Under the pieces are notes generated by a model that did not search any database, was not told the DNA's origin, and saw only the letters and a program-made list of their open reading frames with translations. The translations under genes were made by a program, and so were the position numbers. Shown in pieces: positions 1-19,505 of a DNA stretch of 39,754 nt; position 1 is the stretch's first letter, and every line of letters starts with the position of its first letter. This stretch comes from Kayfunavirus BDX03P1. The DNA is taken from the sequence record OZ035818.1; one strand, given 5' to 3'.

Positions 1-29
1 TACAAAACGATTAAAGGAGGTGGTAAAAC

Positions 30-293
30 ATGACGCAGATGGACTTAGAGAAGTTCCTCTTAATGCTAGATACTGAACGTGCTCGACTCATGCTGCAAGA
101 CCTGCGGGATGACACTAAGCGTTCACCTCAGCTTTACAACGCCATTGAGAAGCTACTGGCTCGTCACAACTTCGTGCTAAGCAAGGTGTCTGTCGACGAG
201 AAGACGCTCGCTGATATGGAGGCCCTGAACGCAGAGTACGATAAGGTGCTCTCCGCTACGGAAGATAATGACACTGGATATGGAGTACAGTAA
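30..293 (+). CDS. terminase small subunit (T7 gp18-like)
   Basis: 87-aa ORF with SPQLYNAIEKLL segment and overall resemblance to T7 gp18 as I recall it; followed by Rz-like gene and terminase large subunit in T7 order. Confidence 0.8.
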   Translation: MTQMDLEKFLLMLDTERARLMLQDLRDDTKRSPQLYNAIEKLLARHNFVLSKVSVDEKTLADMEALNAEYDKVLSATEDNDTGYGVQ

Positions 294-305
294 ATCTCTT
301 AAGTG

Positions 306-350
306 TTAGACTCAAGGTCATTACTATATGTAGTGGCCTTTATGGTTAAC
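306..350 (+). promoter_or_regulatory. conserved hairpin element, probable RNase III processing site (T7 R18.5 position)
   Basis: ttagactcaaggtcat...gtggcctttatggtta; near-identical element recurs at 9305-9350 and 16888-16931 with conserved outer arms AAGG/CCTT and variable inner stem-loop. Confidence 0.45.
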
Positions 351-403
351 ACTAACTAGTGGAGGAGACTCTACGTGAAATCTGATAAACCGGGAGGGCA
401 ACT

Positions 404-847
404 ATGCTCGAATTTTTAAAGAGAGCGGCTCCGTGGTTACTCGCAGCAGTGATGTTTGCTGGTGGCTACCACACCGCTAACAATAAGTGGGAGGCTAAGG
501 TCAATGCAGAATACACCTCGAATCTTAAGGCATCGGAGGATACAAGACTTGCTGTCCAAGCTGAAGTCAACAAGGTGTCCAAACGGTTTCAGGACGAGAT
601 GTCCTCGCTGGAAGGCAGCACTGACAGGATTATTGCTGACCTTAAGTCTGACAATAAGCGGTTGCGCATCCGAGTCAAACCTACGAGTGGAACCACGCAA
701 AGTGACGGTCGATGCGTCATTGATGGTTACGCCGAACTTGACGAACGAGATGCTAAACGTCTTATCGCCATCGGACTGAAAGGAGATAAGTGGATTACGG
801 CCCTTCAGGACACTGTGAGAGCCTTGCAGCAAGATAAGGAGCAATAA
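404..847 (+). CDS. i-spanin, Rz-like (T7 gp18.5-like)
   Basis: 147-aa ORF, N-terminal hydrophobic segment PWLLAAVMFAGGY then charged/coiled region; position after gene 18. Confidence 0.8.
   Translation: MLEFLKRAAPWLLAAVMFAGGYHTANNKWEAKVNAEYTSNLKASEDTRLAVQAEVNKVSKRFQDEMSSLEGSTDRIIADLKSDNKRLRIRVKPTSGTTQSDGRCVIDGYAELDERDAKRLIAIGLKGDKWITALQDTVRALQQDKEQ
504..779 (+). CDS. o-spanin, Rz1-like lipoprotein (T7 gp18.7-like), embedded in +1 frame of the Rz gene
   Basis: ORF 456-779 in alternate frame; lipobox LTISGC followed by ASES, PRWKxAL motif resembling T7 gp18.7; start at internal ATG 504 chosen over 456 (uncertain). Confidence 0.6.
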   Translation: MQNTPRILRHRRIQDLLSKLKSTRCPNGFRTRCPRWKAALTGLLLTLSLTISGCASESNLRVEPRKVTVDASLMVTPNLTNEMLNVLSPSD

Positions 848-1230
848 TGCTAACAGACTTTGCGTATTCAGACGGTAAGTTGTTCAGGAAGGGACGTGAA
901 GTCGGCTCAATGGACAACCACGGGTATCTGAGGACTACGGTCAACTATCGTAAGTATCTCGTACACCGTCTAATCTACAAGCTGCACAACCCTGAGTTCG
1001 ACCTTGAATCAGACCTTGTGATTGACCACATCAACCGCAACCGGACAGACAACAGGATTGAGAACCTTCGGGCTGTGACCAAGGCTGAAAACAACAGGAA
1101 CAGGGACCTGCCAAGAGGCGTGTCTTATTGTAAACAGACCGGGAAGTGGAAGGCTATACAACCTCGCTGGCTCGGTCGATTTGAGACTGAACAGGAGGCC
1201 ATTGATGCAGTTAACGCCGCAAGAGCGTAA
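847..1230 (+). CDS. HNH homing endonuclease with AP2-like DNA-binding domain
   Basis: 127 aa; HNH core [29 protein letters not shown]; C-terminal AP2-like segment [32 protein letters not shown]; start ATG overlaps Rz stop. Confidence 0.8.
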
Positions 1231-2968
1231 TGACGCCGTGACAAAGAGGATGAAAGAGGACTTCGTGTTCTTCTTATTCGTCCTCTGGAAAGCACTTAGC
1301 CTACCAATACCAACCAGATGCCAGATAGATATGGCCCGTAAGCTATCGGCTGGGGACAACAGGCGCTTCATCTTACAGGCGTTCCGTGGTATCGGGAAGT
1401 CCTTCATTACGTGTGCCTTCGTTGTCTGGAAGCTATGGAACAACCCAGACTTGAAGTTCATGATTGTGTCGGCCTCAAAGGAACGAGCCGATGCTAACTC
1501 CATCTTCATCAAGCGAATCATCGACCTCATGCCTCAGCTTCAGGAACTCAAACCTAAGCAGGGACAGCGAGATGCGGTTATCAGCTTCGACGTTGGACCA
1601 GCCAAGCCAGACCACTCACCTTCGGTTAAGTCAGTTGGTATCACTGGTCAGTTGACTGGTAGTCGTGCTGACATCCTGATTGCCGACGACGTGGAGGTTC
1701 CGAACAACTCAGCGACTCAGGCTGCACGAGACCGTCTATCAGAGCTTGTGAAAGAGTTCGACGCTATCCTGAAGCCTGGAGGTACAATCATCTATCTGGG
1801 TACTCCTCAGAACGAGATGACCTTGTATCGTGAGCTGGAAGGCCGTGGATACACCACTACTATCTGGCCTGCTCGCTATCCACGTGATAGGAAGGACTGG
1901 CAGTCTTACGGCGACCGTCTGGCACCGATGCTTCAGGCAGAGCTGGAAGAGGACCCTGAGTCCTTCTACTGGCGTCCGACCGATGAAGTTCGCTTCGACG
2001 ATACTGACCTGAAGGAACGTGAGCTGTCCTATGGTAAAGCTGGCTTCGCTCTACAGTTCATGCTCAACCCGAACCTGAGTGATGCCGAGAAGTACCCTCT
2101 GAAGCTCCGTGACCTTATCGTAGCAGACTTGGACCCAGCGTCCAGCCCAATGGTCTACCAATGGTTGCCTAACCCTCACAACAAGCGTGAGGACGTTCCT
2201 AACGTTGGACTCATGGGCGACTCGTACCACACGTATCAGACTGTAGGTTCTGCCTTCAGTTCGTACACCCAGAAGATTCTGGTCATTGACCCTAGTGGTC
2301 GTGGTAAGGATGAAACTGGCTATGCGGTACTATACCAGCTCAACGGCTACATCTTCGCTATGGAAGTTGGCGGTATGCGTGGTGGTTATGAAGACTCTAC
2401 TCTGGAAGCTCTGGCTAAGATTGGTCGTAAGTGGAAGGTCAACGAATACGTCATTGAGGGTAACTTCGGTGATGGTATGTACCTTGAGTTATTTAAGCCT
2501 GTAGCGGCCCGTATCCATCCTGCGGCTGTAACTGAAGTGAAGAGTAAGGGTCAGAAAGAACTCCGCATCTGTGACGTTCTGGAGCCTATCATGGGGTCTC
2601 ACAGACTTATCGTCAACGCTGCTGCTATCGTCCAAGATTACCAGTCGGCCTCTGATAAGGATGGTGTTCGTAACCCTATCTACTCTCTCTTCTACCAGAT
2701 GACACGTATCTCTCGTGAACGTGGGGCCTTGGCACACGATGACCGACTTGATGCGCTGGCTATCGGTGTACAGTTCTTCGTTGAGTCTATGGCTAAGGAT
2801 GCCAACAAAGGCGAACGTGAAGTCACTGAGGAGTGGCTGGAGGAACAGATGGAGAACCCACGGAAAGGCTTCGAGTCCATCCACACTGAGTTCTGGGACA
2901 ATGGGGTCCGGGTAACCCACGATACGGACGACGAGCTGGGGCTAGGGTCATACGTTACGTTCCACTAG
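1205..2968 (+). CDS. terminase large subunit (T7 gp19-like)
   Basis: Long ORF 1181-2968; strong resemblance to T7 gp19 ([21 protein letters not shown] Walker A region, [20 protein letters not shown]); start 1205 chosen by alignment of N-terminus, alternative ATG at 1181. Confidence 0.9.
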
Positions 2969-3062
2969 CTGAATGAATAACTATGGGTGAAAGCTGCATG
3001 AATACGCAGTTAGTAACCTATAGTTACTACCAGTCTAACCTACTGTTTTACAAGGAGTTTGG

Positions 3063-3085
3063 ACTTAACTATCACTATAGGGAAG
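3063..3085 (+). promoter_or_regulatory. phage RNAP promoter (phiOR-like, downstream of terminase)
   Basis: cttaactatcactatagggaaga matches the 12-copy consensus TAAACTATCACTATAGGRA. Confidence 0.6.
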
Positions 3086-14628: not shown

Positions 14629-16666
<2,038 letters not shown>

Positions 16667-16944: not shown

Positions 16945-17346
16945 ATGATTGACTGTATTGAGTGGACCGGGTGCCGAGATAAGTTCGGCTATGGCATGCG
17001 TAGGGTCAATGGGAAAGTCCGTAGGCTACATCTCATAGCGTATGAGGAAGCTAATGGTCCAATACCAAAGGGACTGGTTGTCCGTCATAAGTGTGACAAC
17101 CCGTCATGTTATAACCCTGATCACCTAGAGCTTGGGACACGAGCTGATAACGTTAAGGACCTGGATGTCCGTGGACGTACAGCAAAGGGTGTAAAAGTGG
17201 GATGCGCCAAGTTGACACCTGAAATTGTAGCCGAGGCTAAGAGATTGTACGCTTCTGGTGAATGGACTCACCGCTCTCTGGGAGAGAAATACGGCGTAGG
17301 GCATAGGACAATAGCCCGAGCGATTGGAGGTGCTACATGGATTTAA
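16945..17346 (+). CDS. HNH homing endonuclease (HNH_3-type with C-terminal HTH)
   Basis: 133 aa; CxxC...HKCDNPSCYNPDHLELGTRADN; C-terminal helix-turn-helix-like segment; sits immediately before DNA polymerase. Confidence 0.85.
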   Translation: MIDCIEWTGCRDKFGYGMRRVNGKVRRLHLIAYEEANGPIPKGLVVRHKCDNPSCYNPDHLELGTRADNVKDLDVRGRTAKGVKVGCAKLTPEIVAEAKRLYASGEWTHRSLGEKYGVGHRTIARAIGGATWI

Positions 17347-19505
17347 GTAACGTTTATGGCTCCGACATCGAGACCAACGGTCTCCTTGACACCGTGTCCC
17401 AGTTCCATTGTGGGGTCCTGATTAATGCCGAGTCGAATGAGACCCTTAAGTATGGGGTAGCGCCGATGGTCGGTATCGTCGGTGGCTTCAAAGAGTATGT
17501 ACAGAAGGTGGAAGAAATTGCTGCGACGCCTAAGGGTATGCTGGTCTTCCATAACGGTATCAACTACGACGTCCCGGCTATTGACAAGCTGAAACGTCTG
17601 TACTTTGGGAAACGCTTTAACTTCCCGAAACACAAGATGATTGATACCTTGGTTCTGGGCCGCTTGATGTATCCCAACATTAAGTTCTCAGACATGGGCG
17701 CGGTGAAAGCCGGTCGTCTGCCGCCTAAGCTGATGGGACGTCAGTCTCTTGAGGCTTGGGGCTATCGTCTCGGTGAGATGAAGGGTGAGTACAAACACGA
17801 TTACGTTGCCAAGTGCAAGGCCGAAGGTATCGAATATAAGTCTGGGGACGAATGGTTGTTCCCGTCTCAGGAGATGCTGGACTATAACGTTCAGGACGTT
17901 GTGGTCACACTGGCGTTGTTCAAGAAGTTCCTGACTGACAAGTATTACTTCCAGTCTGAACAGTTTGCTTTCGAACAGATTTATGCGTTGCGTCTGGAAC
18001 ATGATGCTGCGTGGACCTGTGCGAAGATGGAGCGTAACGGCTATCCGATGAACACCGAGATGGTCGAAGGCTTATATCGTGAACTCACTGTCAAACGTGC
18101 GGAGTTACTGGACAAGCTGCGCTCTACTTTCGGTAGCTGGTACGCACCAAAGGGAGGCAAGGAGTTCTTCAGGCATCCACGGACAGGTAAGGACCTTCAG
18201 AAGTATCCGAGAGTCGTGTATCCTAAGGTCGGTGGCATCTTTAAGAAGCCGAAGAACAAAGCTCAACGCTTAGGTCTTGAACCTTGTGAACGCGACACGC
18301 GAGACACGATGGAGGGAGCACCATTCACGCCAATCACTTACGTTGAGTTTAATCCGGGAAGCGGAGACCACTTAGCGAAAGTCCTGATGGAGCGTGGCTG
18401 GGAGCCTGTTGACTTCACTGACACCGGGAAACCTGTAGTCGATGACGAGACGTTAGAACACGTTAAGTTACCAGACGCAGAGGCACAGGCTTGCGTAGAG
18501 CTGGTCCGTGAGTATCTGGTGGTCCAGAAGCGCATCGGTCAGGCGGCTGAAGGTAAGAACGCATGGTTGAAACTTGTAGGTCCAGACGGACGTATGCACG
18601 GTTCAATCAACCCATGTGGTGCAGTAACAGGACGTGCGACCCATAGTTCACCAAACATGGCTCAGGTCCCGGCTAACGGTGCTCCGTATGGTGAGACTTG
18701 CCGTGGTGCTTTCGGTGCAGCGTGGAACAAGAAGGACGGTAAGCCAGACCCTTGGATTCAAGTAGGCGTGGATGCTTCAGGTCTTGAGCTTCGTTGTCTG
18801 GGGAACCGAGCGGCTCCGTTTGATGGTGGCGACTATGCGAAGACTGTGGTCGAAGGTGACATCCACTGGGCCAACGCAGTCAACGCTGGGTTAGCACCTA
18901 ACGTCCCACGCGACAAGTCGAGCCATGACCACGATGCTTTCCGTAATAACGCCAAGACGTTCATCTATGCGTTCCTGTATGGTGCAGGGGCCGCGAAGAT
19001 TGGACTGATAGTTGGCGGTGGTAAGAAGGAAGGTGCTGCCCTGATGAAGAAATTCATTGAGGGTACACCAGCTATCAAGGATCTGCGAGAGGCTGTGCAA
19101 AACACGCTCATCTCAGAGTCGAAGTGGGTAGATGGTGAGAACATCGTGAAGTGGAAACGTCGCTGGCTGAAAGGTCTGGATGGTCGCCGCATTCACATCC
19201 GGTCGCCACACTCAGCACTTAACGCCCTACTTCAGGGTGATGGTGCGGTAGTCTGTAAGCACTGGATTGTCGAGACCGAGCGTATGCTCGAAGAGGCCGG
19301 GTATGTCCACGGCTGGGAAGGAGACTTCGCTTACATGGCTTGGGTTCACGATGAGCTACAGATTGCGTGTCGTACTCAGGAGATTGCCGAAGAAGTCGTC
19401 AAGATTGCTCAACTTGCTATGCGTAAGGTGGGTGAGTTCTATAACTTTAAATGTGTCCTTGATACCGAAGGTAAGATTGGACCAACTTGGAAGGAGTGTC
19501 ACTGA
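17337..19505 (+). CDS. DNA polymerase (T7 gp5-like, family A)
   Basis: 722 aa; colinear with T7 gp5 (VFHNGINYDVPA exo motif, GRATHSSPNMAQVP, FAYMAWVHDELQ). Confidence 0.95.
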   Translation: MDLSNVYGSDIETNGLLDTVSQFHCGVLINAESNETLKYGVAPMVGIVGGFKEYVQKVEEIAATPKGMLVFHNGINYDVPAIDKLKRLYFGKRFNFPKHKMIDTLVLGRLMYPNIKFSDMGAVKAGRLPPKLMGRQSLEAWGYRLGEMKGEYKHDYVAKCKAEGIEYKSGDEWLFPSQEMLDYNVQDVVVTLALFKKFLTDKYYFQSEQFAFEQIYALRLEHDAAWTCAKMERNGYPMNTEMVEGLYRELTVKRAELLDKLRSTFGSWYAPKGGKEFFRHPRTGKDLQKYPRVVYPKVGGIFKKPKNKAQRLGLEPCERDTRDTMEGAPFTPITYVEFNPGSGDHLAKVLMERGWEPVDFTDTGKPVVDDETLEHVKLPDAEAQACVELVREYLVVQKRIGQAAEGKNAWLKLVGPDGRMHGSINPCGAVTGRATHSSPNMAQVPANGAPYGETCRGAFGAAWNKKDGKPDPWIQVGVDASGLELRCLGNRAAPFDGGDYAKTVVEGDIHWANAVNAGLAPNVPRDKSSHDHDAFRNNAKTFIYAFLYGAGAAKIGLIVGGGKKEGAALMKKFIEGTPAIKDLREAVQNTLISESKWVDGENIVKWKRRWLKGLDGRRIHIRSPHSALNALLQGDGAVVCKHWIVETERMLEEAGYVHGWEGDFAYMAWVHDELQIACRTQEIAEEVVKIAQLAMRKVGEFYNFKCVLDTEGKIGPTWKECH

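Follow-up and report, generated by a model that had tools for sequence, protein, structure and literature searches.

The genes for the freestanding homing endonucleases of phage T4 (MobE and SegA-G) lie between or beside essential genes, and their products cut a nearby site in a relative that lacks the gene; they spread with co-conversion of the flanking markers. The Seg proteins are GIY-YIG enzymes, and MobE is an HNH enzyme that is without an AP2 domain and targets nrdB. I-HmuI of Bacillus phage SPO1, an HNH enzyme that nicks one strand, is encoded inside a group I intron of the DNA polymerase gene. The general pattern of the freestanding phage enzymes has been set out by Barth et al. (PMC10448857), homing-endonuclease genes (HEGs) cluster beside terminase genes and at recombination boundaries (PMC10448857), and HNH-AP2 endonucleases have long been known in phages (e.g. 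PMC2248197, PMC10448857). HNH nuclease genes of the HK97 gp74 type also adjoin terminase genes; all relatives have them, next to the cos site and 5′ of the gene for the small terminase subunit, and cos cleavage requires them (PMC8861465, PMC10448857).

Within the T7-like phages, HNH genes have already been published at the junction between the spanin gene Rz and terL, the gene for the terminase large subunit, in Yersinia fPS phages (PMC5923468) and in Hafnia phage Ca (vB_HpaA_yong1) and Citrobacter phage CR44b, a Kayfunavirus (PMC8861465). Gp045 of Yersinia phages fPS-7, fPS-9 and their relatives was annotated as a ‘homing endonuclease’ and is unusual among T7-like late genes (PMC5923468). In phage Ca, HEG-containing and 397-bp-deleted subpopulations were seen experimentally, and loss of the 397-bp fragment went with small plaques (PMC8861465). 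Phage HNH-AP2 enzymes, HEGs beside terminase genes, and the annotations of orthologs in the fPS phages and in phiYIO1-1 (whose gp48 is 97.6% identical to the protein described here and carries the record note ‘putative homing endonuclease’) are all known, and the locus analyzed here reveals no new kind of system; the Rz–terL junction has already been recognized as a hot spot in phages of the T7 type. What is added here are the exact boundaries of the cassette and its capture of the terL start, evidence for conversion tracts that includes partial tracts in phages without the gene, and a site common to three related lineages.

The locus and its neighbors

The window, by which we mean the whole 39,754-nucleotide stretch analyzed (Kayfunavirus BDX03P1, OZ035818.1), is a T7-like genome of complete length that belongs to the genus Kayfunavirus (the K1F, EcoDS1 and SH3 group). 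Its bases 1-3000 match approximately 200 Kayfunavirus records at 90-96% identity, and the closest match genome-wide is Escherichia phage ElsieAttenhofer_Bas105 (94.8% identity over 90% of the 24.9 kb compared). The gene order in the first 3 kb is terS, Rz with an embedded Rz1, an ORF for an HNH protein, and terL. The features to which we refer are as follows, with the evidence for each in brackets.

30-293: terS (gene 18)
404-847, + strand: Rz-like i-spanin (gene 18.5), the 5′ neighbor of the HNH ORF (PHROG 1327 Rz-like spanin, 3e-60; Pfam Phage_lysis; alignment)
504-779, + strand: Rz1-like o-spanin (gene 18.7), inside Rz in another frame (ORF list; position and length, 276 nt, as in the annotated 18.7 of SH3 and EcoDS1)
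836-841, + strand: AAGGAG Shine-Dalgarno sequence used by the HNH ORF (sequence; alignments)
842-1249, + strand: the cassette proper, 408 bp (BLAST HSP boundaries; alignments)
847-1230, + strand: HNH-AP2 endonuclease ORF, 127 aa, ATG start (Pfam, PHROG, I-HmuI alignment, structure model, dN/dS)
955-1098, + strand: HNH_3 (His-Me finger) catalytic core, aa 37-84 (Pfam; phmmer alignment to 1U3E; Foldseek; conservation in 66 homologs)
1111-1224, + strand: predicted AP2-like DNA-binding domain, aa 89-126 (weak Pfam AP2 match; 39 of 66 homologs; model and Foldseek)
1193-1198, + strand: AGGAGG Shine-Dalgarno sequence for terL, within the HNH coding sequence (sequence; kept in all HNH-carrying relatives)
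1205-1249, + strand: start codon and first 15 codons of terL, carried by the cassette (N-terminal comparison)
1205-2968, + strand: terL (gene 19), which encodes the large subunit of terminase and is presumed to be the target of homing (Pfam Terminase-T7_RNaseH-like, 6e-38; PHROG 38, 2e-131)
1250-1345, + strand: co-conversion-like tract in terL (alignments; Fisher p=2e-16)

With both neighbors identified by their families, the HNH ORF does lie between a spanin gene and terL, where an earlier note on this DNA had placed it; T7 has no gene there, also as that note had stated, and just a 21-nt gap between genes 18.5 and 19. The genes are tightly packed: the Rz stop (TAA, 845-847) and the HNH start have one nucleotide in common (TAATG), and the 3′ end of the HNH ORF overlaps terL by 26 nt (1205-1230) read in two frames. 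The terL start that the note had given as probable, ATG 1205, holds, with AGGAGG 6 nt upstream and the same ‘MQ...’ start annotated in all of the HNH-carrying relatives; a start at TTG 1181 was rejected on these grounds.

Neither a promoter nor a terminator was found within the cassette, with counts at or below those of shuffled controls, and no phage-promoter consensus was found near it, so we read the cassette as part of the late 17.5-18-18.5-19 gene block in which it lies. An RNA element or intron was rejected because Rfam searches of the window, fPS-9 and IJM04 gave no match. The search for direct repeats that flank the cassette and could allow its precise excision returned merely a 6-nt chance match (GCAAGA at 829 and 1219), and at the phage Ca locus no repeat at 397-bp spacing was found.

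The predicted endonuclease

The assignment of the 127-aa protein as an HNH endonuclease, made earlier from the letters and ORF list, is secured by its match to Pfam HNH_3 (PF13392; E=4.6e-18, 65 bits against a cut-off of 24.8, aa 37-84) and to PHROG 99 ‘HNH endonuclease’ (1e-38); the Pfam search gave no match to the general HNH family. The sole solved relative found by sequence is I-HmuI (1U3E; phmmer E=0.011, aa 35-102), and residues D60-H61 (1024-1029), N73 (1063-1065) and N82 (1090-1092) align with D74-H75, N87 and N96 of that enzyme. An alignment of 66 homologs shows no variation at D60, H61 or N73 and at least 90% conservation of N82. An AlphaFold model built on the same alignment (mean pLDDT 94.5) comprises an N-terminal beta-sheet, a beta-beta-alpha core with the beta-beta-alpha-metal fold, and a C-terminal domain of three strands (92-95, 100-104, 108-112) and a helix (115-126); its best match in the PDB by Foldseek is again I-HmuI (1u3e, E=1.1e-4, 90 columns, rmsd 3.2). 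I-HmuI and the window protein thus have in common the N-terminal beta-sheet, the HNH core and the catalytic D-H, N and N, but the C-terminal part of I-HmuI is helical with a helix-turn-helix where the window protein has an AP2 domain, and the window gene is freestanding rather than intron-encoded.

The AP2-like domain proposed in the earlier note is less obvious. On its own the 127-aa protein matches Pfam AP2 weakly (E=0.014, 16.1 bits, under the 33.3-bit cut-off), although the C-terminal unit of the model resembles the AP2 domain of WRINKLED1 bound to DNA (7wq5; Foldseek probability 0.99, 49 columns, 31% identity). Because 39 of the 66 aligned homologs reach Pfam AP2 at E<=0.01 (best 1.6e-9), ‘HNH-AP2’ seems a fair description despite the sub-cut-off match of the single sequence. 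Taken together, these comparisons predict that ORF 847-1230 encodes an I-HmuI-like HNH_3 endonuclease with a C-terminal domain of AP2 fold. The family is very common in phages, with relatives found by tblastn in 2,084 phage records. Within the window there is a weak paralogous match only, 40% over 52 aa, to an HNH_3 ORF at 14629-14994.

It is worth considering whether the protein is still a working enzyme. A length of 127 aa is short for an HNH homing endonuclease and the AP2 helix ends at the terL overlap, features that would suit an inactive relic or a domesticated, non-cutting DNA-binding regulator. Against this stand the intact D60-H61, N73 and N82 with their conservation in the 66 homologs, the high confidence with which the fold is predicted, and pairwise dN/dS values between HNH copies of 0.04-0.14, computed over the codons that do not overlap terL. 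These low ratios indicate purifying selection on a protein that is not in decay, and we regard a decayed or domesticated remnant as highly unlikely. A chance ORF or pseudogene was rejected on the family match, the conserved catalytic residues and the same dN/dS values.

The Rz–terL junction with and without the cassette

Comparing the window with cassette-free phages reveals how the junction has been rebuilt. In the cassette-free arrangement the Rz stop overlaps a TTG start of terL (CATTGAGT), and the terL Shine-Dalgarno sequence (TAAGGAGGTG) lies within the last Rz codons. Homology with these alleles ends sharply after AAGGAG, which sets the left boundary of the cassette at 841|842, and returns, diverged, at 1250, such that 408 bp (842-1249) stand in place of 53 bp (SH3 L001:1042-1094). 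As a result the C-terminus of Rz reads ...DKEQ* in the window as opposed to ...DKEVKH* in cassette-free phages, and the old terL Shine-Dalgarno sequence (836-841) now serves the HNH ORF, with a 5-nt spacer to the ATG at 847. At its other end the cassette supplies terL with a new Shine-Dalgarno sequence, with an ATG and with 15 new codons, which replace the TTG-initiated LSKDLVARQALMTAR of the cassette-free alleles. Since the cassette carries these three elements, terL keeps its expression, which is now physically tied to the cassette. By this comparison the cassette has replaced the junction, and with it the start and N-terminus of terL, and has not simply been inserted; this replacement of the start of its presumed target gene also sets it apart from T4 MobE and the Seg enzymes. 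For annotation, the implication is that terL of HNH-carrying Kayfunavirus genomes starts at the cassette ATG and that of cassette-free genomes at the TTG overlapping the Rz stop; several GenBank records of cassette-free phages annotate a later terL ATG.

The gene is scattered among close relatives. Near-identical copies (89-98% at the nucleotide level) are present in five records (phiYIO1-1, BUCT788, Cronobacter vB_CtuP_B1, PhiNW-B1 and Klebsiella P7124), which are the five carriers among the approximately 200 close relatives, and pO91 has a further, 77%-identical copy. In most close relatives the alignment covers 86% of the 3-kb query and leaves out the HNH gene, and a 90-nt probe across the cassette-free junction finds it in approximately 146 records, K1F included; SH3 is likewise cassette-free. 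Conservation at this locus in all relatives, which the earlier note had named as an argument against homing, is therefore absent. HNH-carrying and HNH-less genomes are interleaved among the nearest relatives of the window, and Bas105, its closest genome-wide match, is without the gene. Outside the cassette the window is 96-97% identical to the HNH-less SH3 and EcoDS1 and 92-95% identical to the HNH-carrying BUCT788 and CtuP_B1. In pO91, terL is 97.5% identical to that of the window but the HNH gene only 69.8%, which points to a separate acquisition. The scattered carriers, the flanks that are nearer to HNH-less phages, and the pO91 mismatch together argue that the HNH gene moves independently of its backbone. 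Across genera the two genes are about equally conserved, with identities of 66-70% for HNH and 66-68% for terL.

The earlier note had mentioned that HNH proteins next to terminase act as packaging cofactors in some cos phages, and the distribution bears on the possibility that the HNH protein here is a terminase accessory factor that helps terL cut concatemers as in HK97-like cos phages. The HNH gene does adjoin terL and is translationally linked to it, as would be expected of such a factor, but T7 has no gene at this position and packages with gp18 and gp19 alone. The approximately 146 cassette-free records, K1F and SH3 among them, do without any HNH gene here, and in the sampled cassette-free alleles terL is approximately 96-97% identical in DNA over the shared part. 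Nor does the locus match the HK97 gp74 type in other respects: the window gene is sporadic, being absent from most Kayfunavirus genomes and from T7; its place is after terS, with Rz and terL as its neighbors; its product is of the HNH_3-AP2, I-HmuI-like type, with no match to the general HNH family; and the phage has direct terminal repeats. The small plaques that accompanied the 397-bp loss in Hafnia phage Ca could be taken to support a packaging role (PMC8861465), and a role in homing does not necessarily preclude one in packaging (Barth et al., PMC10448857). However, the small plaques may be explained more simply, in that the deletion takes out the terL Shine-Dalgarno sequence and start codon inside the HEG. 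We consider an accessory role in packaging very unlikely, and a packaging cofactor like HK97 gp74 was rejected on the absence from most relatives and T7 and on the different HNH subfamily.

In all orthologs of the protein (52-98% identity) the gene adjoins terL on the upstream side, and the two overlap by 8-53 nt at the terL start. They span four genera and a prophage, and their carriers include Kayfunavirus phages, Morganella phage Lilpapawes (Minipunavirus), the Yersinia fPS phages (Helsettvirus), several metagenomic contigs and, as the prophage, a T7-like element of Pseudomonas fluorescens. Gp045 of the fPS phages is one such ortholog (67% amino acid identity, HNH_3 with an AP2-like domain); its gene, too, has Rz on one side and terL on the other, with an overlap of 29 nt at the terL start. 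The fPS phages differ in belonging to another genus and backbone, with terL approximately 82% identical over the part compared, and in that Gp045 is present in all of the listed fPS phages whereas the window-type gene is sporadic. In one contig two extra genes part Rz from the HNH ortholog, and thus the HNH gene is linked to terL, not to Rz.

Two more HNH-AP2 lineages occupy the same Kayfunavirus site: the type of CR44b and Hafnia phage Ca (14 records) and the type of 04_vB_Eclo_IJM. They are 65% identical to each other, and each is 40-46% identical to the window protein. Like the window protein, Ca ORF48 and CR44b gp3.8A are HNH_3 proteins whose C-terminus is AP2-like; their genes occupy exactly this Rz–terL junction, overlap both neighbors and hold the terL Shine-Dalgarno sequence and start in the 3′ end; unlike it, they form a separate lineage (approximately 40% identity) with a different terL N-terminus. 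In both the CR44b/Ca and the IJM lineages the HNH gene brings its own terL leader (MSKKTPAERQ...) and has a Shine-Dalgarno sequence in its 3′ end. Unrelated ORFs are found at the junction as well: one of 53 aa in EcoDS1, two of 140 and 56 aa in Bas105, one of 207 aa in EPr2, and two of 281 and 361 aa in a metagenomic contig; a Pfam search of the EcoDS1, Bas105 and EPr2 ORFs gave no match. The variety of these ORFs shows that the junction is also a general hot spot for insertions.

Homing or ordinary exchange: a divergent tract in terL

It is informative to examine the sequence on either side of the cassette. Immediately downstream, the tract at 1250-1345 differs from SH3 at 27 of 96 positions (28%), compared with 50 of 1615 (3%) elsewhere in terL (Fisher p=2e-16) and with 24 of 841 in the left flank. 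Over the first 65 codons compared (1250-1444), 19 of the differing codons are synonymous and 3 are nonsynonymous. The right end of the tract varies between carriers: it lies at approximately 1343 in the window and at approximately 1416 in BUCT788, phiYIO1-1 and pO91, and in PhiNW-B1 and CtuP_B1 it is a little beyond that of the window. Moreover, some phages that lack the HNH gene and keep the ancestral start have the distal window-type tract alone, at the equivalent of 1297-1342 in phiHAO1-1 and phiHAO2-2 and of 1303-1348 in ZH4. The segment common to phiHAO1-1 and ZH4 (approximately 1303-1342), which encodes 14 conserved terL residues, is a candidate for the break or target region. The sharp left boundary, the graded and variable right tract, and the partial tracts without the gene fit break-initiated gene conversion; they are consistent with it and do not prove it. 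The comparison with insert-free relatives that the earlier note had called for both delimited the cassette and yielded a candidate target segment.

Based on these observations, we think that the cassette is probably a freestanding homing-endonuclease gene, active or recently active, that targets the 5′ end of terL. The view of the earlier note that a homing gene sits beside the terminase gene is supported as regards homing, which the flanks and the distribution favor, and has to be adjusted as regards simple insertion. In the mechanism that we envisage, translation of the HNH ORF uses the former Shine-Dalgarno sequence of terL and, when a carrier and a cassette-free relative infect the same cell, the enzyme would bind DNA through its N-terminal beta-sheet and AP2 domains. 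It would then nick or cut the 5′ coding region of terL in the naive genome, the likeliest target being the segment that matches approximately 1300-1345 of the window or else the replaced junction itself. The recombination machinery of the phage would repair the break from the HNH-carrying genome, copying the cassette and a variable length of flanking terL, and the carrier would be protected by its replaced junction and by the cluster of synonymous changes. On the best-supported reading the cassette would be harmless to its carrier, which has a replacement terL initiation region and a linked terL unlike the naive allele.

Several observations speak against homing. The target site is placed from polymorphism alone, and the divergent terL tract could represent an import from a diverged donor by ordinary recombination. 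The similar identities of HNH and terL across genera also fit a long vertical association with repeated loss. Because it lies in the class III gene block, the gene would be expressed late, a timing that is not clearly the best for homing, and the G+C content (50.0% versus 50.5%) gives no sign of a foreign origin for the cassette.

The main rival of homing is that the gene encodes a functional nuclease that does not copy itself and has been moved by ordinary homologous recombination at an insertion-tolerant junction, kept for some benefit to the phage, perhaps the degradation of the DNA of co-infecting competitors (exclusion), of the host or of a defence. The many unrelated cargos at the junction, which mark a general hot spot, are in keeping with this, and strong purifying selection fits a beneficial function. 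Likewise, positions that vary in the tract are common to the alleles linked to the three HNH lineages, as if a diverged 5′ module of terL had been exchanged. What such exchange explains less readily is that three related HNH-AP2 lineages each lie exactly against terL and each bring their own terL start, that the ortholog stays with terL even where other genes part it from Rz, and that the partial tracts in HNH-less genomes center on one short segment of terL; the attachment to terL and the pattern of tracts fit break-initiated repair better than random exchange. We judge a passenger or weapon gene of this kind to be rather unlikely, while recognizing that sequence data cannot fully separate homing from cargo exchange, because imported diverged DNA and co-conversion look alike.

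If homing is the correct reading, the alleles may also record its history. BUCT788 and phiYIO1-1 combine a window-type HNH gene with a CR44b-type downstream tract, a mosaic that suggests successive invasions. More tentatively, it is possible that the cassette is entrenched as well as mobile, that at least three HNH-AP2 lineages compete for and displace one another at one site, and that the partial tracts are scars of attacks repaired without gain of the gene. Given that the cassette has taken over the terL start, Shine-Dalgarno sequence and 15 codons, its simple deletion would be expected to cripple terL expression, and entrenchment, if true, would explain the small-plaque deletion variants of Hafnia phage Ca. 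The terL 5′ end of the Kayfunavirus phages would then provide a naturally occurring, tractable setting in which homing endonucleases compete with one another.

In T7-like phages, tests of elements of this kind are few. At this locus, alleles with the cassette, without it and with partial conversion occur naturally in coliphages that are easy to grow, which makes it convenient for measuring homing, marker exclusion and homing-endonuclease competition in phages of this kind. One can also imagine the engineering of therapeutic T7-like phages from which the HNH gene is to be removed; any such design must keep 1193-1207, or else terminase expression will be lost.

Start and annotation of terL in relatives

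In several GenBank records, the start of terL, the gene for the terminase large subunit, is placed at an internal ATG (MTARMK...), for example at L001:1083 in the comparison locus of SH3 and at L012:1978 in that of EPr2. The sequences suggest that in the cassette-free phages, which lack the HNH gene between the i-spanin gene Rz and terL, the true start would be a TTG that overlaps the Rz stop, 11 codons upstream of the annotated ATG. This TTG is preceded by TAAGGAGGTG, and the records of EcoDS1 and Bas105 annotate terL from the TTG overlapping the Rz stop. In Enterobacter phage 04_vB_Eclo_IJM (L019), the terL annotation consists of four successive fragments (1369-2755), a pattern that probably reflects frameshifts or sequencing errors and not biology.

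Unrelated genes and an intervening element around terL

The Rz–terL junction of some relatives holds open reading frames unrelated to the HNH gene:

L002:1047-1208, EcoDS1, 53-aa ORF, function not assigned
L011:1002-1607, Bas105, 140-aa and 56-aa ORFs, function not assigned
L012:1309-1932, EPr2, 207-aa ORF, function not assigned
L017:537-2482, metagenomic contig, 281-aa and 361-aa ORFs, no Pfam match on record

A Pfam scan of the junction ORFs of EcoDS1, Bas105 and EPr2 returned no matches. In Yersinia phage fPS-9 (L007, ~2290-3013), the annotation splits terL itself into g046 and g048, and the ~720 bp between them hold a 178-aa ORF, g047. Pfam gave no match for this ORF, and Rfam no intron match for the region between the two pieces; the ~720 bp seems to be an uncharacterised element that interrupts terL. 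The same phage also carries an HNH ortholog upstream of its split terL.

An ortholog of the HNH gene also occurs on a bacterial contig:

GCA_005233585.1, QGAI01000010.1, 59070-67456, Pseudomonas fluorescens (L016), T7-like late gene block

This block comprises genes for a tail fibre, holin, terS, a putative spanin, an HNH ortholog (52% identity) and terL, and it lies in a 232-kb bacterial contig, adjoining efp. The block is apparently a T7-like prophage integrated there, in which the HNH gene and terL are arranged as in the window.

A second hot spot between terS and Rz

The terS–Rz intergenic region (window ~355-416) is a second hot spot whose site is empty here, with no HNH or Endonuclease VII-family gene. 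At this position, BUCT788 has a 133-aa HNH_3 gene and phiYIO1-1 a 91-aa Endonuclease VII-family gene, and HNH genes are also found there in Lilpapawes and in metagenomic contig L014. Adjoining this insertion hot spot is another short mosaic patch, at the terS 3′ end (window 241-300), where the window shares 98-100% identity with SH3, EcoDS1 and EPr2 but only 67-78% with BUCT788, phiYIO1-1, pO91, PhiNW-B1, CtuP_B1 and P7124.

Promoter copies and other HNH_3 genes of the window

The repeat AACTATCACTATAGG(G/A), likely the phage RNA polymerase promoter consensus, occurs at 3067, 6209, 9286, 21144, 23971, 24977, 29626 and 36899; none of these 8 copies lies in the HNH cassette or directly upstream of it. 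In EcoDS1, the counterpart of the copy at 3067 is annotated as the phiOR promoter, which follows gene 19.

Besides the gene at 847-1230, the window contains two HNH_3 endonuclease ORFs, and the genome therefore has three HNH_3 genes:

14629-14994, HNH_3 endonuclease ORF, 121 aa (Pfam E=2.7e-18)
16945-17346, HNH_3 endonuclease ORF, 133 aa (Pfam E=7.3e-17)

The former bears a weak likeness to the gene at 847-1230 (40% over 52 aa) and lies on the upstream side of a long ORF (14927-16666); the latter is immediately upstream of a 722-aa ORF (17337-19505).
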